Shown here piece after piece: positions 1 through 9,526 of a stretch of 64,000 nucleotides of DNA. Each line of letters starts with the position of its first letter. The stretch's first letter is position 1. The stretch comes from an uncultured Eubacteriales bacterium (GTDB taxonomy: Bacteria > Bacillota > Clostridia > Oscillospirales > Acutalibacteraceae). The stretch lies in assembly GCA_964627535.1 (NCBI GenBank), contig CAZVJW010000007.1, positions 3,144 to 67,143 of the forward strand, given 5' to 3'. The translations under genes were made by a program, and so were the position numbers. The notes beneath the pieces were generated by a model, which had not been told where the DNA came from, did no database searches, and saw only the letters and a program-made list of their open reading frames with translations.

Positions 1-747
1 TCCGATATCACCGACAGCATCCGGCAAACTGCATTCTGCCCTTGAAATCCCGGTTACTGCTGTCGGCTTAAAAGCGGGAACTTCCCCCAGATGAGGAACT
101 GCTTTTACAGAAGATTTCGGTGTAGCGCCCTTAAACGCTATATAATCCATTGATCGAGGAATAGCCGGAACCTTGAATCCACTTTTAATCGGTTTCTTGT
201 CAACCATAGGCGAGTAGTCAACGGCGGAAAGCGTAACCGGTACATTCACTGAAGCGCCGGAGATGGTTACATTAAAAGGTTTATATTTTGCTTGTTTGCT
301 GACAGCAGGCACGGTAAATTTGCCGCTTTCAACCTCAACGATTGGTAACGGCGCAAACTCAGGCTGTGGGTTGACAGCAGGCACGGTGAATTTGCCGCTT
401 TTAACCTCAACGATTGGTAACGGCGCAAACTCAGGCTGTGGGCTGACAGCAGGCACGGTGAATTTGCCGCTTTTAACCTCAACGATTGGTAATGGCGCAA
501 ACTCAGGCTGTGGGTTGACAACAGGTACGGTGAATTTTCCGCTTTCAACCTCAACGATTGGCAACGGAACAAACTCAGGCTTACAGATGAAATCGGAATT
601 AGTCAAGCCGGAGTCTCTCAAAGGAGATTGTTCCCTGTCGAATTTTGCAAACTTACCCTTAAGCTTCAGGATAACTTCGGTCATTTCATATTCGAAGAGC
701 TCTTTACGCCTTTCGATTTCTTCCCGAGTCGATAAGGTGTTTTCCAT
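1..747 (-). CDS. Repeat-containing protein, 3'-partial (continues past window start). N-terminus MENTLSTREEIERRKELFEYEM...; carries ~4.5 tandem copies of the 24-aa unit PQPEFAPLPIVEVKSGKFTVPAVS.
   Basis: Absent from the supplied ORF track because there is no stop in the window. The minus-strand phase is open from the ATG at 745-747 (RBS GGAGGA ~8 nt upstream, rev-comp of 755-760) down to nt 1, with no TTA/CTA/TCA triplets in that phase. The track ORFs 263..895(+) and 267..572(-) are off-frame readings of the same 72-bp repeat. Confidence 0.6.
   Translation of the reverse strand, partial: MENTLSTREEIERRKELFEYEMTEVILKLKGKFAKFDREQSPLRDSGLTNSDFICKPEFVPLPIVEVESGKFTVPVVNPQPEFAPLPIVEVKSGKFTVPAVSPQPEFAPLPIVEVKSGKFTVPAVNPQPEFAPLPIVEVESGKFTVPAVSKQAKYKPFNVTISGASVNVPVTLSAVDYSPMVDKKPIKSGFKVPAIPRSMDYIAFKGATPKSSVKAVPHLGEVPAFKPTAVTGISRAECSLPDAVGDIG
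299..586. repeat. 72-bp tandem repeat x4 (fourth copy diverged), in-frame within the 1..747 gene
   Basis: gacagcaggcacggtRaatttgccgcttt(c/t)aacctcaacgattggtaacggcgcaaactcaggctgtgggtt recurs with 72-nt period (299, 371, 443, 515). Confidence 0.9.
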
Positions 748-818
748 AATTATCCTCCAACAAGAATTTCAACTGCAGTATCGACAGCACCTTCCGTCGA
801 TACTACAGTCTGTTCGAT

Positions 819-1127
819 TCAGGCTCCAAGGGTCTGCGGTATATTTGCAGCGAGCTGACCATCTGTTTTACTCATGTTTTCCGCACTTGCTCTGATTTCC
901 GCAGCAATAACGCCGACGATTTGTGGAATGTTCATATGGAGATGTTCAAAAATCGCGCCCTCAAGGAAAGTTACAAACTTGTCTCTTGACTCGCCTTCCC
1001 AACTTGCGATAGCGGTCTTCACGGAATCAACCAGTGTTTCAGCCGCTTTTTTGTATTGATCTGCATAACCGTCAACTTCGACTGCAGCAGATTCCATTTC
1101 GGGATACTTGTAAACGATGTCTGCCAT
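819..1127 (-). CDS. WXG100-family protein (EsxA/ESAT-6-like), 102 aa
   Basis: ~100-aa helical protein with a central W-E-G motif (..AIASWEGESRDKF..), compare S. aureus EsxA ..AANWEGQAFSRF... Strong RBS AAGGAGTGA 5 nt upstream. Confidence 0.75.
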   Translation of the reverse strand: MADIVYKYPEMESAAVEVDGYADQYKKAAETLVDSVKTAIASWEGESRDKFVTFLEGAIFEHLHMNIPQIVGVIAAEIRASAENMSKTDGQLAANIPQTLGA

Positions 1128-1148
1128 TGTAATTCACTCCTTTTTAAA

Positions 1149-1463
1149 TTATTGGGCTCCGCCCGGATTTGTGTTGCCGTCGCCAAGCTGCGGGTCAAGA
1201 TTGTCAAGCAGTGTGTCTTGGATGTTTGCAAGGATGTCTTTGAGTGCTTTGGCGACGGAAGTGATGCCATCCGTCAGCGCCGGTGTAACGGTACTGTTAA
1301 AGAACGCCTTACAACCATCAGAACCGTCACCGTTCCAATTGGAAGCAGTCAGAGAATTCAAGGTGCCTTGAAAGCTCTGATAGATGCCGTTTGCGGTTGA
1401 CTCATACGTTTCGACTGCACTTGTCGCGTCCGCAATGTTCGCGTGGGTGAGAATACTTGCCAT
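1149..1463 (-). CDS. WXG100-like small helical protein, 104 aa (motif SNWNGDG)
   Basis: Size, central W-x-G, tandem position beside the WXG100 gene; RBS AGGAGGA. Confidence 0.55.
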   Translation of the reverse strand: MASILTHANIADATSAVETYESTANGIYQSFQGTLNSLTASNWNGDGSDGCKAFFNSTVTPALTDGITSVAKALKDILANIQDTLLDNLDPQLGDGNTNPGGAQ

Positions 1464-1503
1464 TGTTCTTTTCCTCCTAATAAAAATTTATTTTACTCAC
1501 CAT

Positions 1504-1827
1504 TTACCCGTGATAGCTCGCAATCGAGCTGTTCAGGTTCCTGTACTCATCAAAAACAGACTGATACTTGCTTTTTGACGTGTTCAGAACTTGGGAAATG
1601 TGGTTAAGTACGAGTTTTTGGTCGTTCAACGGCCGAAGAAGGTTCGCTTCGCAAGAATTATAAAATTTTGCTCCGCACGGTGTCTCAAACCCTTTGCTGA
1701 GCGTTTCGAGCAGGTTATTAATCTTATTGCTCAGGTTTTTAATGTCTCCGCTCAGCTTGACCAAGTCAGCCGAAGCCTTTGAAAAAGCCTCTTCGTCAAT
1801 GGTGATGTCCTTATCGAAAAGTCCCAT
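1504..1827 (-). CDS. Small helical protein (~107 aa); possible WXG100-like/Lap-type T7SS accessory protein
   Basis: ORF-track ORF 1504..1836. The ATG at 1825-1827 (MGLFDKD..) has RBS AAGGGTGA and overlaps the TPR gene stop. No recognisable motif beyond size and context. Confidence 0.4.
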   Translation of the reverse strand: MGLFDKDITIDEEAFSKASADLVKLSGDIKNLSNKINNLLETLSKGFETPCGAKFYNSCEANLLRPLNDQKLVLNHISQVLNTSKSKYQSVFDEYRNLNSSIASYHG

Positions 1828-1832
1828 ATAAA

Positions 1833-3143
1833 TCACCCTTCCGCAAGTTCTTTACGACAGTCTGAAATATATTTATTCAGCTCGGTCTTCAACGCTTCCG
1901 GCATAAGTTTAATCAATTCCTCAGCCTTGACAAACTTGCCGTTTTCCGCATAAAGGCGAACCCTGAAAATGATGGAAAAGATATCCTGCGGTTTTTCAAA
2001 CGCCTTGTTTCTAAAGAAAGCAATCGCGTTATTATACTTTGATTCCGCAAGATTTGCATCCAGCACACTTTTGCCTGCGAGTTTCCTTGAGGCATAAGCG
2101 TCTGCATAAGTGGCAAAATACACATAGTATTCGTTTTCGCTCAGCTTCAGCTGTTCGGCAAGCTCGGCAGCTTCTTCGTACTGCTCTTTGCCGAAATAGC
2201 AGGACAGCTTAATGAATGTTGCTTTTTCTTTTGTCTGTTCATTTTGTTCAATGGTATCGACACTTGCCAAAGCATCGTCAAAACGTCCCAGTTTCAAATT
2301 GATCTCCGACTTGGAGAACGCAATGTTGACGAGGGTCTCAATCGGCAAATCCGGCGTAACCTCAAAGCCGGCAAGCAGACCCAAGGCTTCCTCGTAATAT
2401 TTTGCTGTATTCTCTTTATCTTTGTCCGCTCTCACAGCGGCAAGCATAACCTTGTCAAAAACCACATCGGCTACATTGGATATATCCGCGGCAATGTCTG
2501 CATAACTCTCTGCTTCGGCAATTACAGCTTCCGCTTTATCGTACTTGCCCATCGCGGCAAGAATCTGAAAGTAAATCTGGTAGCTTCGGAATTCTGCCGG
2601 GGCAAGCATCTTCAGCTGAATAGCATAGTTTTCGGCATGGGCGTAATCCTGTGACTCAATATAGAGTTGCAGACGCTTAAGCAATATTTCTTTGGTATCG
2701 TTATTAACCGGTCCGAAACTATCGCATTTATCGAAGTTCAGAAGAGCCGACTTTATATCGCCCATCATGTAGTTGATCATGCCGATTTGATAATACAGCT
2801 TTTGCATGGTTATGTCCGCACAACCGTATTGCTCGGCCTTCGCGTAATTCGCCAATGACTCACTAAACTTTTCAACTCCAAACTTGATGTTACCTAAATC
2901 AAAATACTTCACGCCGTTCGTTTCGTCATTCTCCACAGCTTTCTCCAAGAATCCTTCCGCATCCTGCAACCTGTCGAGAACAAGACACGCCTTGCCGGCA
3001 CCTGTGTATGCGTCCGTGTTTGACGGGTCCTTTGCGATAGCCTGCTCGCACAAATCCAAGGCAACATCATATTGCCCGTTTGTGAACGCCACCTCCGCAT
3101 TGGTCAGCAGCTCCTTAACCGCTTCGATATTGTTTTCGCTCAT
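1833..3143 (-). CDS. TPR-repeat protein, 436 aa
   Basis: Repeated 34-aa TPR-like units (..YDVALDLCEQAIAKDPSNTDAY.., ..ESLANYAKAEQYG..); RBS AAAGGAGAGG. Confidence 0.7.
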   Translation of the reverse strand: MSENNIEAVKELLTNAEVAFTNGQYDVALDLCEQAIAKDPSNTDAYTGAGKACLVLDRLQDAEGFLEKAVENDETNGVKYFDLGNIKFGVEKFSESLANYAKAEQYGCADITMQKLYYQIGMINYMMGDIKSALLNFDKCDSFGPVNNDTKEILLKRLQLYIESQDYAHAENYAIQLKMLAPAEFRSYQIYFQILAAMGKYDKAEAVIAEAESYADIAADISNVADVVFDKVMLAAVRADKDKENTAKYYEEALGLLAGFEVTPDLPIETLVNIAFSKSEINLKLGRFDDALASVDTIEQNEQTKEKATFIKLSCYFGKEQYEEAAELAEQLKLSENEYYVYFATYADAYASRKLAGKSVLDANLAESKYNNAIAFFRNKAFEKPQDIFSIIFRVRLYAENGKFVKAEELIKLMPEALKTELNKYISDCRKELAEG

Positions 3144-3209
3144 TGCTTACCTCTCCTTTTTCGTTACTTGATAATTATTCGCTTTTTACCATCAGTGGAT
3201 GATTTTCTG

Positions 3210-4406
3210 TTAATGAGCAGGTGTTGGTGTGTATATGCTCTTTGCGCCTGCTTTCAGTACATTCTTTGGGAGGTCGTCAAATAATTTTGCTACTGTGCCT
3301 TTAAAGAAAACTTTCCACGACATTTCGTCTGTATAGCCTTTTGTAATCATTGTCAAGCCCCTCTTGTATACTGCAGAGAATGAATTTCGACCACTATTAA
3401 TCCCGGTTACCTTTAAAAACTGGGGTGCCGCATTCTTGCCAGTACCTAACTTTGATACTAATCCCCCCACTGCTCCCACGGCTAATCCAATCGCTCCTGC
3501 AATCGCCATATCAGAAAAAATTTCGTCTGTGGTTTTACCTTCGAGTGTTCCTCCGATAAATTTAGACATATAGCCTCCCACGGCACCACCAAGAGCAGGA
3601 TGGCCGCAAGCAGTCATGAGACCAGTGATTGCACCGCCTGCAACAGCACCGACATAGGTTTGCCAGCTTGAAAGACCTTCTTGCTTACCGGTAACCATCA
3701 TAATAACGTCGCTAATCAACTGACCTCCCGCACCGCACAATGCGCCGATACTGGCACCGATTACCGCCGCAAACAGAGCACCCGCCACCCCGAATGTCGC
3801 TACTGTTAACACAGCCACAGCGACAACAGCGACGGCAACAGCGACGGCAATTAAGATTTCTTTCCAATGGGTTATAGCCCATTCCTTGATACCATTTAAA
3901 ACATTAAGATAAGCTTCACCAACTGACAGAAAGAACTTTCCTATTTTTGCTACAACACCGCCGATGCTGTTGATAACATCGCCGACAACACCGCAGAAAC
4001 CGCTGATTGCGCCGCCGACGCCGCTGCAGAATCTGTCCCAGTCACTAGGCGGAGCGGGTGGCCTGAGCCATGGGTTTGTCCGGTAAAACGCTTCCGTGGA
4101 ATTTTTGACAATACCCGCGACGGATTTGTCAACCCGGAGGGATGTCTGAATGAAGTTGTCTGTTTTGCCTCTGACATTCTGAACAGCAATTTTCCGTGTT
4201 TCCTCGGCCGTTTTGCGTGTATTAATGTAGCCAAGCGCGGTACTCAGCGTACCGACGCCACCGCTTATTCCGCAGGTTTTGTTCGTCACGTTCTGAAAAC
4301 TGTTTATTAAACTGTCGCTGGTTGCGTTATTAATGCCTACTGTTATTAAGGAGCACACTCCGTTAAAAAACGAATCCAAGCCCCCGGCGTTAATCTCCAA
4401 TCTCAT
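3210..4406 (-). CDS. Glycine-zipper membrane protein, 398 aa; candidate membrane-permeabilising toxin domain (TelE/TspA-like architecture)
   Basis: Three Gly/Ala-rich hydrophobic segments with GxxxG/AxxxG zippers (..FGVAGALFAAVIGASIGALCGAGG.., ..YVGAVAGGAITGLMTACGHPALGGAVGG.., ..MAIAGAIGLAVGAVGGLV..). The internal AVAVAVAVVAVAV stretch is encoded by a 12-nt microsatellite. It lies in frame with the upstream ORF across a single TAA. Confidence 0.55.
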   Translation of the reverse strand: MRLEINAGGLDSFFNGVCSLITVGINNATSDSLINSFQNVTNKTCGISGGVGTLSTALGYINTRKTAEETRKIAVQNVRGKTDNFIQTSLRVDKSVAGIVKNSTEAFYRTNPWLRPPAPPSDWDRFCSGVGGAISGFCGVVGDVINSIGGVVAKIGKFFLSVGEAYLNVLNGIKEWAITHWKEILIAVAVAVAVVAVAVLTVATFGVAGALFAAVIGASIGALCGAGGQLISDVIMMVTGKQEGLSSWQTYVGAVAGGAITGLMTACGHPALGGAVGGYMSKFIGGTLEGKTTDEIFSDMAIAGAIGLAVGAVGGLVSKLGTGKNAAPQFLKVTGINSGRNSFSAVYKRGLTMITKGYTDEMSWKVFFKGTVAKLFDDLPKNVLKAGAKSIYTPTPAH

Positions 4407-4433
4407 GTCATCACCCGCTTCTTTAAAAACTTT

Positions 4434-5000
4434 TTAGAATAAGTTTATTATTTCGGTTACCTGCGCCAATCGTTTCTCCATGTTATGTTTCTGAGAATTG
4501 AAGCCATTCAGTGCATTTTCGGCAGAACTTTTTTGATTTGCGTATTCGGCGCGGTTCCGGCTATTGGCTCGTTGGTTTCCTTCAGCGTTCTCTTTTGTCC
4601 GCTGTGCCTGACGGTATTGTGCTTGAGCCTCTTCCTTAGCCCGCGCATCAGACGTTTTATTCATCTCACGCTTATAATAATCCATGTTGTTGCTTGCATT
4701 ACGGATTGCCGACGAATAGTTTGTGCTGTCGCAAGCGCCGATTTTGGCATTCAGGTTATTAATAGTATTTTCGGCACTTGCAATACTCCTTTTCAGCTTA
4801 GCAATTTCCTGTTCCACACGGGATTTTTCTTTGCGGTACTCGCTGAGGGCTCCTTGTGTATTGGAGTCCTGCTTAACTGCAAAGATGCTGGAAAAATCAG
4901 CGCCGGCCATTCCACTGCACTTGATTGCACTCAGGAAAGTTGCTCCGACTGATTTTATGGAGTTGTTGGATGCGTTGATGCATTCCGATATAGTGGGCAT
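4434..5000 (-). CDS. Coiled-coil protein, 188 aa, Q/N/A-rich C-terminal half; possible N-terminal (LXG-like) carrier domain of a split polymorphic toxin
   Basis: RBS GGAGGT 7 nt upstream. The predicted helical coiled coil (EEAQAQYRQAQRTKENAEGNQRANSRNRAEYANQK) is in frame with 3210..4406, separated only by TAA + 9 codons. Confidence 0.45.
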   Translation of the reverse strand: MPTISECINASNNSIKSVGATFLSAIKCSGMAGADFSSIFAVKQDSNTQGALSEYRKEKSRVEQEIAKLKRSIASAENTINNLNAKIGACDSTNYSSAIRNASNNMDYYKREMNKTSDARAKEEAQAQYRQAQRTKENAEGNQRANSRNRAEYANQKSSAENALNGFNSQKHNMEKRLAQVTEIINLF

Positions 5001-5108
5001 TCGCTTTACCTCCGTTCAAGAATTTATTTGGTACGATGTGAACTTCCAAATGGAAATCTAAAAACTAAACTAAAGCACATTTTCAGGTAAATCGCTATCG
5101 AATCTGCT

Positions 5109-5747
5109 TTAAAGTCCCGCTCTGGCGCCCCATACTGCCAATTCCTTGCAGTTACGGAGCCCAAGCAATTCCCGGATACTGACGAGTTGATTCCTTAAAT
5201 GACCTTCGCTGACAAAAAGCTCTTTGGCAATCTCGGCGTCTTTTTTACCCGCTGTTATCCAGCGTATAATCTCCCTCTGCTTTTCCGACAATTTTTCGAT
5301 ATCTGCATTTGTTGTGCGAATTTCTCTTTTATCTGACAGTTGATCATGTATTGTTTCTCTAACCCCATTTTCGTAAGTCGAAAAACCCATCGATGTGCTT
5401 TTGATGATGGATATCAGTTCATTGCTTGTATGTCCTTTGTAAAGGTATCCGTCGCAGCCGCTCTTGATGGCAGCAATTTCGTTATCCTTGATCTGATAGA
5501 ATGTTAAAATTAATATTTTAATATTCGGATCCGTCCGCTTGATGAGTCCGCATACTTCAATGCCGTCCATCCCAGGCATCTTAATATCCAGCAGTACGAT
5601 GTCCGGCTTTATTTTCAGACAGCTGTCAACCGCTTCCATACCACTGTTAAACAACCCCGTGACAACGATACCCTCTTTGCCGTCAATATTCCTTTTTAAC
5701 GCCCTGGCAGCTTCGATATCATCGTCGACGATAATGACCAGAATCAT
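5109..5747 (-). CDS. Response regulator, NarL/LuxR family (REC + LuxR-type HTH)
   Basis: N-terminal VIIVDDD..LLDIKMPGMDG receiver motifs; C-terminal LSEKQREIIRWITAGKKDAEIAKELFVSEGHLRNQL HTH. Confidence 0.9.
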   Translation of the reverse strand: MILVIIVDDDIEAARALKRNIDGKEGIVVTGLFNSGMEAVDSCLKIKPDIVLLDIKMPGMDGIEVCGLIKRTDPNIKILILTFYQIKDNEIAAIKSGCDGYLYKGHTSNELISIIKSTSMGFSTYENGVRETIHDQLSDKREIRTTNADIEKLSEKQREIIRWITAGKKDAEIAKELFVSEGHLRNQLVSIRELLGLRNCKELAVWGARAGL

Positions 5748-5775
5748 TAATTTACCCCCCCAAACAGATTACCGT

Positions 5776-7473
5776 TTAGCATGCGTCTGAAATAACCAAA
5801 AACGGCAGTGTTGCCTTAATATTGAAACCTCCGCCGTTTGGTGAGCCGAAACTGAGCTTGCCGCCGAGCGAGTCGACTCTTTCTTTCATACTGTTGAGAC
5901 CATTCTTTGGTATAATATACTCGCAGCCTGCGCCGTCATCGGTGACGAAAAGCTTCAGCACGCCGTCTTCACTATGAAGTGTCACTGTAACATTGTTCGC
6001 ACGTCCATGCGCAAAGGAATTACTGATGGTCTCCTGGCAAATAAAATAGATTGTATCGCCAAGCTTTGTTTTGCTGATCTGACTGTCGTTTGCTATATTA
6101 TGAGAAAAATCAACATGCATCCCTTTGATCCGCAGTCTGTAAAACATGGTATCCAAAGCCGCTAACAAGCCTTTTTGCTCTATATCAATCGGCTTGAGCT
6201 CATCTACAATTCTTCTCAGTTGCACAAATGCCCCAATCGATTTATCATAGGAAATCCGCAGGCAGTCTTGAACCTCTTGAGTATCGGAAAAGTTGTTAAG
6301 CACATATTCCAGGTTGGAACTGATGACATTGATGCTGTTGCCCAGGCTATCGTGCAAATCATTCGAAACACGGTTCCTCTCGCTTAGCAAGGTTTGAATC
6401 CTGTACTCTGTCATATCCTTAAAAACAGCTAACTTTCCAATGGGTTTTTTACTTCCGGAATATAATGGTGAAATATTGACAGTATATTGTCTGCAGCCCT
6501 TTTTCGGCCAATACATAACCAGCGTGTCCTCATAAGCTTTATCTTGGTTCCCAGCCAACAGATTTACAATCTCGTCAATTTTGTTTTTATCTTCACAATA
6601 TTGATCCAGCGATTCAATTATTTTTCTGAAATCCACATATGGCTTACATACAGTTATTCCTTCGAAATAAAGATCGGCTGCCTCGTTGGATTCGATAATT
6701 TGCCAATTTGAATCGATAATAAACGCTGCTTCGTTCAATGTGGAAAAAATCTTTTGTGATGCCACCGGTATGATTTCTATCAAACGGTGTTTTAGGATAT
6801 ATACCGTGAGAACCACAAAAAAAACAGCTAAACTCGGCAGAGTCAGGTATATGCCGAGCTCCGTTAACGGTTTGACCATCACTTGTAAAATTTGAAGCAG
6901 GAGCGGCACACACACTGCAAGCGCCAACGGCCGAATACTTTTTTCCCCTCTACCTCGAAGCGTTCTGCCTATTAAAACAACAGCGGCAATGATGTAAAGA
7001 AATGAAAACACTTCACTGACAATCATCAGAATGCCCCAGACATCCTCATAACCGCCAAATTTTTTTGACTGTAGAACAAGATGAAAATACTTGAATGTAA
7101 ACAGAGGCCAGACACACAGCAGTTGCGGCAGCAGTACAAGAGAGATGATTTTGAGCTTGTTTCCTGAACTAATGATTCCGGAATAATAAAATGAAAAAAT
7201 TAGAAACAGCGCGCCTATGAACATAGTCGGCACCAAGGTAAGCCGAACATTAAAGTACATTTGCGCCTCACTGGAGGACATAAGCTCATTCATGTATAAA
7301 ATTATCCAAAAAATCAGGCAAAAATAAAATATTGTAAGACTGTAGAATTCCTGTGTCTTTTTTGCCCGGATAAAAATAATCGTGGCAGTCACGACGCACA
7401 AAATCAGCAAAGTCGCGTATGTCAACAAATTTAATTTCAAAACAAAGGTCAACAGCCTCACCCGATCCAACAA
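5776..7473 (-). CDS. Sensor histidine kinase, multi-pass membrane (about 7 TM), HisKA_3 + HATPase_c (ComP/DegS-like class)
   Basis: N-terminal ~230 aa of TM helices; H-box ..RNRVSNDLHDSLGNSI..; ATPase motifs ..VTDDGAGCEY.., ..LGGKLSFGSPNGGGFNI... Confidence 0.85.
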   Translation of the reverse strand: MLDRVRLLTFVLKLNLLTYATLLILCVVTATIIFIRAKKTQEFYSLTIFYFCLIFWIILYMNELMSSSEAQMYFNVRLTLVPTMFIGALFLIFSFYYSGIISSGNKLKIISLVLLPQLLCVWPLFTFKYFHLVLQSKKFGGYEDVWGILMIVSEVFSFLYIIAAVVLIGRTLRGRGEKSIRPLALAVCVPLLLQILQVMVKPLTELGIYLTLPSLAVFFVVLTVYILKHRLIEIIPVASQKIFSTLNEAAFIIDSNWQIIESNEAADLYFEGITVCKPYVDFRKIIESLDQYCEDKNKIDEIVNLLAGNQDKAYEDTLVMYWPKKGCRQYTVNISPLYSGSKKPIGKLAVFKDMTEYRIQTLLSERNRVSNDLHDSLGNSINVISSNLEYVLNNFSDTQEVQDCLRISYDKSIGAFVQLRRIVDELKPIDIEQKGLLAALDTMFYRLRIKGMHVDFSHNIANDSQISKTKLGDTIYFICQETISNSFAHGRANNVTVTLHSEDGVLKLFVTDDGAGCEYIIPKNGLNSMKERVDSLGGKLSFGSPNGGGFNIKATLPFLVISDAC

Positions 7474-7903: not shown

Positions 7904-8580
7904 TTACCCTTTAATGAACTTCATTATCTTTTTTACATCCGCCAACGGGTTGAGCTTATAAACCTGCCCCGTAATTTTTTCGATGGCTTCCGGTTCTGTA
8001 ATACTTGCTGCTTCGTCAAACACATCGCTGCCGAAGAAGCTTTCCGTTGTGCAGAACACCGTTGACGACCAGCCGTATTCCTCCCCTATATGCGAGGCTT
8101 TTCTTTGCCTGCCGCACATGGTGATGTACATCTTCATCTGTAGCTCGACGATAGCTCTTTCAAAATGGGAACTGTCTTCTTTTGAAAAATTTCCAAATTG
8201 TTTGATTATATGAAACGGCATGCTTTCGTTGTCGCTCACCAAACCGTAAATCCTTTTGGCAAAGACGTTCATTGTACCGTCTGAATAAGCTTCTTCAAAG
8301 CTTTTGCCGCCCCGGCGAACAGCTAAAAAATACGGGTACCATTCTTTGTGATGAAGCCGCTTTTATTGATGAATAGTTTTGCGTATGCGATATCATCGCG
8401 CTCTTCCAAAACACGCATGCGCCATTCCCACGGGTCCGTTTCGGGGTCATCGGTGTGCCATGCTATTTGGCTGCCGAACAGGGAACAAAGCGAAAAAATG
8501 CCCTCGCTGTTCTCGCCGCCGGTTGAAAATCCGGCGTCAAGCAAAGCGGCTGTGAAGTCATTAAAATTTTGTATTTCCAC
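7904..8580 (-). pseudogene. Hypothetical protein split by a 1-nt frameshift in an A-run (ORFs 8323..8580 + 7904..8272 would fuse to ~215 aa)
   Basis: The frame of 7904..8272 stays open upstream to beyond 8345. Adding one A to acaaag (around 8335) gives a continuous ..FINKSGFITKEWYPYFLAVRRGGKSFEEAYSDGTMNVFAK.. protein. Confidence 0.45.
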
Positions 8581-8644: not shown

Positions 8645-9526
8645 TTATTTCTTTTCAACAGGTATCCAAAGCTCATAATACCGTTTCTGCCGTTCTTCTT
8701 TTGGGAACAAATGATAAACCTCGATTTCATAATCGCGTGTTTGCTTGTATCCCGAACTGTCAAGCCAAGAGTCAAATATCTGTTCACGGAGTTTTGGAAG
8801 CTCGTCACCGGCGTAACCGCCATATCCTGTTGTGAACACAGCATAGGTGCCGGCGTTGATAAAAACCTCGTCAAGTCCTTCGCCTGTGACTTCAGCCTTG
8901 TCTTTGGCTATGGAGTATTTACCGTTATCCCAAATTCCATACCAAACGCCGGGGACATTTGTGCTAACCTTATTTTGAACATCATCATGGTGGTCAGCCC
9001 ACATGATATGTTCTTGCTCAAAGCGGTCTGCGGCAACGCCAGTAAACTGTTTGCTCAGCCCTTTTAAAACTACGTTTTCAGTTTCAATAATCTTGAAATT
9101 CATCGCCTTTGCTCCTTTAATCATAACGTGAAAGGAAATCGGGGGATAGATTTTCAAGGGTGCACCTTGTGTTCGGGCCATCCCGGGTGTTAAACCGTGC
9201 TGTTTTAAGAAAGCTCTGCTGAATGCATCCGCACTGTTATAGCCATATTTTACAGAAACATCAATCACTTTAATATCCGAATTTTGAAGCTCAAACGCTG
9301 CAAGAGTCAATCGCCTGTGTCTGATGTATTCAGATAAAGTAACGCCGGCTAAGTAACTAAACAATCGCTGAAAACCATCAGGAGAATTTAATGTAATTTT
9401 CGCGACCTCATTGATATCAATTTCGTCACATAGACTGCTCTCAATATACTCAATCGCAGAGTTTAGACTTTCTAATATATCCACCTTTTTCACCTCCGGA
9501 TATAATTGTAGCAAATATTGAAGCAA
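8645..9526 (-). CDS. AraC-family transcriptional regulator with GyrI-like effector-binding domain
   Basis: N-terminal HTH_AraC (..RLFSYLAGVTLSEYIRHRRLTLAAFEL.., ..YGYNSADAFSRAFLKQHGLTP..) and C-terminal GyrI-like beta-barrel region. Confidence 0.8.
   Translation of the reverse strand: MLQYLLQLYPEVKKVDILESLNSAIEYIESSLCDEIDINEVAKITLNSPDGFQRLFSYLAGVTLSEYIRHRRLTLAAFELQNSDIKVIDVSVKYGYNSADAFSRAFLKQHGLTPGMARTQGAPLKIYPPISFHVMIKGAKAMNFKIIETENVVLKGLSKQFTGVAADRFEQEHIMWADHHDDVQNKVSTNVPGVWYGIWDNGKYSIAKDKAEVTGEGLDEVFINAGTYAVFTTGYGGYAGDELPKLREQIFDSWLDSSGYKQTRDYEIEVYHLFPKEERQKRYYELWIPVEKK

Follow-up and report, generated by a model that had tools for sequence, protein, structure and literature searches.

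Among described secretion systems, those closest to the locus considered here are the type VII secretion systems of type b (T7SSb) that handle LXG toxins together with Lap partners. Toxins of this group such as TelE, EsxX and TspA, glycine-zipper proteins that depolarize membranes, are modular, a helical N-terminal secretion domain being followed by a variable C-terminal toxin domain (PMC10801868, PMC12744356, PMC10434224), and the characterized glycine-zipper toxins of the T7SS have an adjacent immunity gene (PMC12744356). Other variants found in Bacillota, T7SSc to T7SSj, are described in one survey as including kinase, phosphatase, FHA and vWA components (Garrett, Higginson and Palmer 2024, PMC11217815). 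The same survey gives the T7SSc set, TscA to TscG, as a WXG100 protein, a YukD-like protein, an ATPase without FHA domain, a membrane Ser/Thr kinase, a vWA protein, a PPM phosphatase and an EspG-like protein. Here we analyze a gene cluster lying at one end of a 64,000-nt stretch of DNA, hereafter the window, from an uncultured Eubacteriales bacterium of the family Acutalibacteraceae (assembly GCA_964627535.1, contig CAZVJW010000007.1, positions 3,144 to 67,143 of the forward strand). The genes encode, in order of their reading direction, a coiled-coil protein (CC188), a candidate polymorphic toxin (TOX398), a tetratricopeptide repeat (TPR) protein (TPR436), three small helical proteins (W110, W104 and W102) and a proline-rich repeat protein (REP). 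Comparison with related loci indicates that positions 1 to 5000 of the window are probably the 5' half, with the genes for cargo and helper proteins, of a type VII secretion cluster of a kind present in Ruminococcus and other Oscillospiraceae.

To define the cluster, reference genomes were scanned with a REP fragment, which yielded 32 loci, and a metagenome scan provided 45 further loci. The reference loci come from Ruminococcus flavefaciens, R. albus AR67, Ruminococcus sp. YE71 and other Oscillospiraceae, for the most part metagenome-assembled genomes from the rumen; the metagenome loci include contigs from the human gut. The cluster type is common in rumen and gut relatives of Ruminococcus. 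As determined by tblastn and clustering, the gene order in these relatives is fixed: CC, TOX (one to four copies), TPR, W110, W104, W102 and REP. Beyond REP lie, at some loci, a gene for a vWA protein of about 500 residues, then genes for two FtsK-family proteins of about 1040 and about 520 residues (FtsK1 and FtsK2). On the 3' side of the latter come a further (core) WXG100 gene and genes for PP2C phosphatases, an FHA protein and a membrane Ser/Thr kinase. DUF4176 genes are also found in related loci, along with the kinase, PP2C, FHA and vWA genes.

FtsK1 has two transmembrane (TM) helices and, at the locus where it was analyzed (L011), matches YukB/EssC of Bacillus subtilis with an E value of 1.3e-74 and EccC5 with one of 6e-27. 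FtsK2 of the same locus matches the D2-D3 region of EssC (1.8e-12) and aligns to the EssC/EccC D2-D3 constructs 5fv0, 4lya and 4n1a. Judged from these sequence matches, FtsK1 and FtsK2 are together a split EssC. Such an ATPase follows REP in 36 of the 37 related loci in which at least 3.5 kb of sequence is available beyond that gene. Among them are a locus with 81% nucleotide identity to the window over the TPR-REP segment (L034) and a locus whose toxin is of the same type as that of the window (L036), both having the full cluster with EssC. The closest relative of all is a third locus, L033, with 79 to 86% nucleotide identity to the window.

In the window itself, the reading frame of REP starts at position 747 and runs off position 1. 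Because the sequence ends inside REP and 36 of 37 relatives have a split EssC at that place, the EssC ATPase and the remaining core genes are most likely to be found on the DNA directly adjoining position 1. The initial annotation of this DNA had covered the interval from 819 to 7473, which excludes the start of REP. The genes it listed there are all present, in the same order and all on the minus strand, as borne out by the open reading frames (ORFs) of the window and their Pfam matches. It had also remarked that no essC gene was visible, and a search of the window for EssC/FtsK homologues gave none.

A division of the ATPase has a precedent in mycobacterial ESX-1, where EccCa1 is the membrane-bound N-terminal part and EccCb1 a soluble polypeptide with the final two ATPase domains. 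The split seen in the Ruminococcus-type loci is similar, with FtsK2 aligning to D2-D3 constructs; however, FtsK1 finds its best match in Bacillota YukB/EssC rather than in EccC, and no genes for EccB, EccD, EccE or MycP were seen. The likeness to T7SSc to T7SSj, and to T7SSc in particular, lies in the combination of an EssC-type ATPase and WXG100 proteins with a membrane Ser/Thr kinase, PPM/PP2C phosphatases, vWA and FHA proteins (PMC11217815). What sets the present cluster apart is that the ATPase consists of two polypeptides and that a stand-alone TPR protein, the trio of small helical proteins and the proline-rich repeat protein are conserved. Compared with TscA to TscG, related loci have the kinase, vWA, PP2C and WXG100 components, whereas YukD-like and EspG-like proteins were not recognized, and a split ATPase, a TPR protein and an FHA protein come in addition. 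The survey and those of its supplements that were searched contain no mention of Ruminococcus, of a split ATPase or of a stand-alone TPR component, and in the literature searched we found no description of this Ruminococcus/Oscillospiraceae cluster type.

The candidate toxin of the window is TOX398. All members of its family start with a domain of about 118 residues (MRIELNAGGL...) that contains an invariant GGVGxL turn and ends in FYxxNPWxRPP; in TOX398 itself the turn is GGVG and the end NPWLRPP. The domain is usually followed by an amphipathic helix and then by a TM hairpin, and the C-termini beyond are variable and unrelated to one another. A hidden Markov model (HMM) built from alignment A1 of this domain recovered 85 ORFs in related loci, while a profile search with A1 in a set of 5.8 billion proteins returned only 8 fragments. 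Among 90 family members, the C-termini include six ADP-ribosyltransferases, two GH-E nucleases and one LHH nuclease, most of the others being without Pfam match. Such an organization, with a constant delivery domain, interchangeable C-termini and a C-terminal domain reused on RHS proteins (see below), is that of polymorphic toxins, save that the adjacent immunity gene usually included in the definition is missing beside TOX398. On this pattern TOX398 is a candidate T7SS-linked polymorphic toxin.

The overall plan and siting resemble those of T7SSb LXG toxins, which likewise have genes for an EssC ATPase and for small helical proteins of WXG100-like type as neighbors, and which share DUF4176 with the related loci. 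The carrier domain is another matter. TOX398 has no Pfam or NCBIfam match at E <= 1, and therefore no N-terminal LXG domain (PF04740) by HMM; none of the 90 family members matches LXG at E <= 0.001, and most of them possess the TM hairpin as an extra element. By sequence the N-domain is neither LXG nor WXG100, there being no HMM match, nothing significant in a comparison of the profile with PDB sequences and a negative result in hhalign against the W102 profile. The AlphaFold2 (AF2) model of the N-domain is a helical hairpin (helices 23-44 and 51-110; predicted local distance difference test score, pLDDT, 73.7), for which Foldseek found non-specific helical hairpins only, all with E > 1. The model of full-length TOX398 (pLDDT 44) is too poor for use.

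TOX398 had been described initially as a glycine-zipper membrane protein. Its composition agrees with that description: residues 126-330 are 47% Gly, Ala and Val, with hydrophobic stretches at 177-228 and 296-314. The number of [GAS]xxxGxxx[GAST] motifs, however, is 9 against 6.5 +/- 2.4 in shuffled sequences, so that the "glycine zipper" reflects composition and not an excess of the motif. TelE, EsxX and TspA likewise have hydrophobic, Gly-rich C-terminal domains, a likeness to TOX398 in composition.

A relationship to RHS proteins emerged when the C-terminal 174 residues (225-398) were searched against 1.84 billion representative sequences. At E <= 1e-3, 110 representatives matched, many of them at the extreme C-terminus of RHS proteins of 1500 to 2200 residues, directly after the RHS end motif. 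The TOX398 domain carries the motifs GQLISDV, SSWQTYVGA and GRNSFSAVYKRG...MSWKVFFKG; those common to TOX398 and the RHS tips are GQLxSD, SSWQTYVGA.GG and GRNSxSAVYKSG. The C-terminal end of RHS proteins is the canonical toxin position. The same domain of about 170 residues is found directly behind the end motif of the RHS shell and in TOX398, although the delivery modules differ entirely, being an RHS cage in one case and a 118-residue hairpin with a TM hairpin in the other. The earlier suggestion that the locus encodes a T7SS toxin is strengthened in that TOX398 belongs to a polymorphic family and that its hydrophobic, Gly/Ala-rich C-terminal domain recurs at RHS tips. The domain also occurs in a distant variant of the cluster, where toxins bearing it are encoded directly after the second EssC half or after the core WXG100 gene, and not 5' of the TPR gene.

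In two other contexts (L039 and L089), a protein of about 160 residues with two TM segments is encoded next after a TOX398-type C-terminal domain, which is what an immunity protein against a membrane toxin would look like. Homologues of the immunity candidates of L039, L089 and L034 are absent from the window, and neither a DUF5085 gene nor a gene for a polytopic membrane immunity protein adjoins TOX398, in contrast to the TelE, EsxX and TspA systems. Only 66 bp separate the TOX398 stop from the TPR436 start; the corresponding interval measures 104 bp in L033 and 53 bp in L036, with no gene in between. Toxin cassettes do vary elsewhere in the cluster. In L033, the genes for a GH-E nuclease toxin and, behind it, Imm33 lie between W102 and REP (L033:5422-7038), and in L034 another toxin gene, with three paralogous genes for 128-residue proteins after it, is found on the 5' side of the TPR gene (L034:1070-4094). 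Neither cassette has a counterpart in the window, from which it follows that cassettes are swapped at two sites of the cluster. Genes of the DUF4176 family, a T7SS chaperone family, lie 3' of some TM-less members of the toxin family; one such protein, C19, had been taken up as an immunity candidate and was rejected as a member of that chaperone family.

A different view of TOX398 is that it represents a conserved membrane-inserted component, or "translocator", of a T7SS variant rather than an antibacterial toxin, with the TPR protein keeping it soluble before export. The model for this is provided by type III secretion systems (T3SS), whose class II TPR chaperones hold hydrophobic translocators. 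A TM segment is found in 40 of the 41 toxin-family genes located directly 5' of the TPR gene, with no gene intervening, against 26 of 44 located elsewhere, which suggests that the TPR-adjacent slot is that of a special, perhaps ancestral, hydrophobic cargo or that cargo of this hydrophobic kind is handled with the help of the TPR protein. The lack of an adjacent immunity gene extends to the TOX398 orthologues in L033 and L036, and TPR436 gives weak matches to the T3SS chaperone families YscG and SctY. The parallel is one of gene arrangement, a TPR gene adjoining that of a candidate secreted protein with a TM hairpin; the secretion systems differ and there is no significant homology, so that cargo binding by TPR436 would be an analogy. 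Against the translocator stand the occurrence of the C-terminal domain at the RHS toxin position and the small two-TM, immunity-type proteins encoded next to it in the two other contexts. Moreover, family members encoded next to the TPR gene differ strongly in their C-termini, which those of a conserved structural part would not do, and at some loci the TPR gene is accompanied by TM-less toxins only. Altogether, we consider a translocator role unlikely and favor the interpretation of TOX398 as a toxin.

TPR436 was initially put forward as a candidate immunity protein. Of the 32 reference-genome loci, 28 encode an orthologue, irrespective of the toxin C-terminus, which rules out toxin-specific immunity and, since the gene is conserved whatever C-terminus is present, marks the protein as a component of the system. 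A role as chaperone or neutralizer of hydrophobic cargo is possible. Besides the protein of the window, the CC188 family has 24 members, which are spread over 23 of these 32 loci, and its genes always lie 5' of the first toxin gene. A sub-threshold YwqH-like match is seen in 6 of the 24 members; assignment to the Lap or YwqH families was discarded, the matches being those of generic coiled coils. CC188 is a candidate toxin partner or targeting factor. As for REP, it includes 3.9 copies of a 72-bp unit (positions 300-581), has a conserved N-terminal segment of about 45 residues and no TM segment, and is followed in relatives by the split EssC.

The three small proteins, all initially assigned to the WXG100 family, proved to be related to it to different extents. 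W102 scores 34.6 bits with the WXG100 model (PF06013; cutoff 27.3), carries WEG at residues 43-45, with W43 and G45 invariant in 20 orthologues, and yields a profile that matches EsxA/EsxB structures; it is a member of the family. W104, with a WNG motif, scores 26.0 bits, just under the cutoff; in hhalign it matches the W102 profile with 85% probability (E 6e-6), and further matches are to LXG (Pfam, 7e-4) and to PDB entry 4lws (E 5.5e-3). On these grounds W104 is probably of the WXG100 type as well. In W110 the likeness is weak: its WXG100 score, 14.1 bits (Pfam E 0.06), lies below the cutoff, its matches to TIGR03930 (E 0.0045) and CFP-10 (E 0.02) are marginal, its turn, GFETPCG (GFxTPxG), lacks the W, and hhalign detects no relation to W102 (3.8% probability). 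From these profile comparisons, the most fitting description of W110 is that of a helical protein resembling WXG100. The W104 family and the core WXG100 protein encoded 3' of the split EssC have in common a conserved C-terminal "LG..NRNP" tail. The W104 consensus is DPQLGxxNRNPG (gene at 1149-1463 of the window), and the core protein ends in ...LGDYNRNPESE (L001:17424-17753 and equivalents). This tail may be an export signal.

Features of the window segment and of related toxin genes. Positions are those of the window unless a locus is named; residues refer to the protein.
Feature	Position	Strand	Basis
Sensor histidine kinase (7TM + PAS-like + HisKA_3 + HATPase)	5776..7473	-	Pfam: HisKA_7TM E 1.4e-17, HisKA_3 5.5e-7, HATPase_c 1.1e-5
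NarL/LuxR-type response regulator	5109..5747	-	Pfam: Response_reg 2e-24, GerE 9e-8
108-bp spacer 5' of the coiled-coil gene	5001..5108	-	Kept in L033 (blastn of L033 against the window)
CC188, coiled-coil protein, 188 aa	4434..5000	-	Pfam: generic coiled-coil matches only
TOX398, polymorphic toxin candidate, 398 aa	3210..4406	-	Family architecture
TOX398 N-domain, residues 1-118, family-defining helical hairpin	4053..4406	-	Alignment A1 (31 sequences), AF2
TOX398 residues ~165-230, conserved amphipathic helix (HWKEI) and TM hairpin	3717..3914	-	Alignments A2 and A3; hydropathy scan
TOX398 putative C-terminal toxin domain, residues 225-398	3213..3734	-	110 library representatives at E <= 1e-3
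TPR436, TPR protein, 436 aa	1833..3143	-	TPR_19 2.9e-17
W110, small helical protein, weakly WXG100-like, 110 aa	1504..1836	-	Pfam, TIGR03930, CFP-10
W104, probable WXG100-family protein (WNG motif), 104 aa	1149..1463	-	Pfam 26.0 bits, hhalign
W102, WXG100 protein (WEG motif), 102 aa	819..1127	-	Pfam 34.6 bits
REP, proline-rich repeat protein cut by the window edge	1..747	-	Translation, tandem repeat, synteny
Distant-variant toxins with TOX398-type C-terminal domain	L037:6400-7455, L038:3286-4341, L089:1565-2776		

A two-component system is encoded immediately upstream of the cluster in the window; the initial annotation had suggested that it may be the dedicated controller of an orphan effector island, and regarded such an arrangement as not described. 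The regulator gene is co-oriented with the CC188 gene at a distance of 108 bp, with no recognizable terminator between them; the gaps from the CC188 gene through REP range from -4 to 71 bp. In L033, similarity to the window by blastn begins at about position 5122, at the stop codon of the regulator, and what lies further upstream is an unrelated gene on the opposite strand. The kinase/regulator pair is likewise absent beside the cluster in L034 and L036. Among the 28 loci with at least 2.5 kb of upstream sequence, a match resembling a histidine kinase or response regulator was found upstream in one only, and it is weak. Orthologues of the window kinase with 71% and 67% identity, each paired with a 212-residue regulator (L040-L042 set), adjoin genes unrelated to the cluster: on the 3' side of one pair is a gene for a 1295-residue protein with a GH106 domain, and of the other a GH32 gene. 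From this comparison of gene neighborhoods, the pair is a neighbor of the cluster in this genome only and not its built-in controller. The 108-bp spacer is the likely site of the cluster's own promoter or leader; a consensus scan of positions 5001-5108 for terminators and promoters gave nothing convincing. An orphan island under dedicated two-component control is therefore highly improbable: the absence of EssC from the window is met by the break of the sequence within the seventh gene, directly after which the split EssC is found in nearly all relatives, and these relatives carry the T7SS core and mostly lack the two-component system.

The kinase product as called by NCBI has 505 residues, 89% of the 565-residue ORF, which starts with TTG, and translation probably begins some 60 codons 3' of the ORF start at 7473 (region 7290-7473). 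Further upstream, between the kinase and an AraC-type regulator (8645-9526), two ORFs of 122 and 85 residues on the same strand (7904-8580) resemble two pieces of a single gene, possibly a frameshift or a pseudogene.

How the products might act together can be proposed by analogy. TOX398 would be exported by the split-EssC machine, as in the LXG-Lap systems (PMC10801868, PMC12744356, PMC11217815). Its N-terminal hairpin would bundle with CC188 and the small WXG100-like proteins, generating the secretion signal for the split EssC in the way LXG toxins do with their Lap partners, and TPR436 would probably serve as a general adaptor or chaperone. The hydrophobic C-terminal domain, common to RHS toxins, would insert into the membrane of the target cell and damage it, as suggested by EsxX and TelE (PMC10801868, PMC12744356, PMC10434224). 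The scheme builds on the membership of the island genes in the cluster, the polymorphic-toxin architecture and the recurrence of the C-terminal domain in RHS proteins, all of which are observations. A broader proposal, which we put forward tentatively and rate at rather less than an even chance, is that the Ruminococcus/Oscillospiraceae cluster constitutes a distinct T7SS subtype beyond the described a to j. In this subtype toxins would ride on a new, non-LXG carrier made of hairpin and TM hairpin, recognized by the TPR, coiled-coil and three WXG100-like proteins, and toxins of the TOX398 type would be kept harmless in the producing cell by the conserved TPR or helper proteins and not by a dedicated adjacent immunity gene.

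Several points weigh against assigning the segment to a T7SS toxin cluster. The presence of the core in the source genome is strongly inferred from the synteny of relatives, the window sequence stopping inside REP. One locus, L010, the sole such case among the 37, has no EssC within 10 kb downstream. No immunity gene adjoins TOX398 or its orthologues in L033 and L036, and the N-domain resembles LXG and WXG100 neither detectably in sequence nor specifically in fold. Finally, a 108-bp gap with no recognizable terminator leaves room for read-through from the two-component system, or regulation by it, in this genome. As to L010 itself (Ruminococcus sp. RGIG6044, NZ_JAFWTA010000015.1), it has the full CC-TOX-TPR-W-W-W-REP-WXG set and is a genuine candidate for an orphan island of the kind first proposed for the window.

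Besides showing that the edge of a window can make a complete system resemble an orphan island, the locus offers a natural test case for how a hydrophobic T7SS cargo stays safe when no immunity gene is adjacent. It points to a toxin-targeting domain not curated before, the N-domain of TOX398, and, on the strength of sequence similarity, to an uncharacterized membrane-toxin domain that TOX398 and RHS toxins appear to have in common. Among the main degraders of fibre in the rumen and the human gut are Ruminococcus and its relatives in the Oscillospiraceae, and to our knowledge little is known about their competition with neighbors. The type of locus described here points to a toxin system, contact-dependent or secreted, that is widespread among them.

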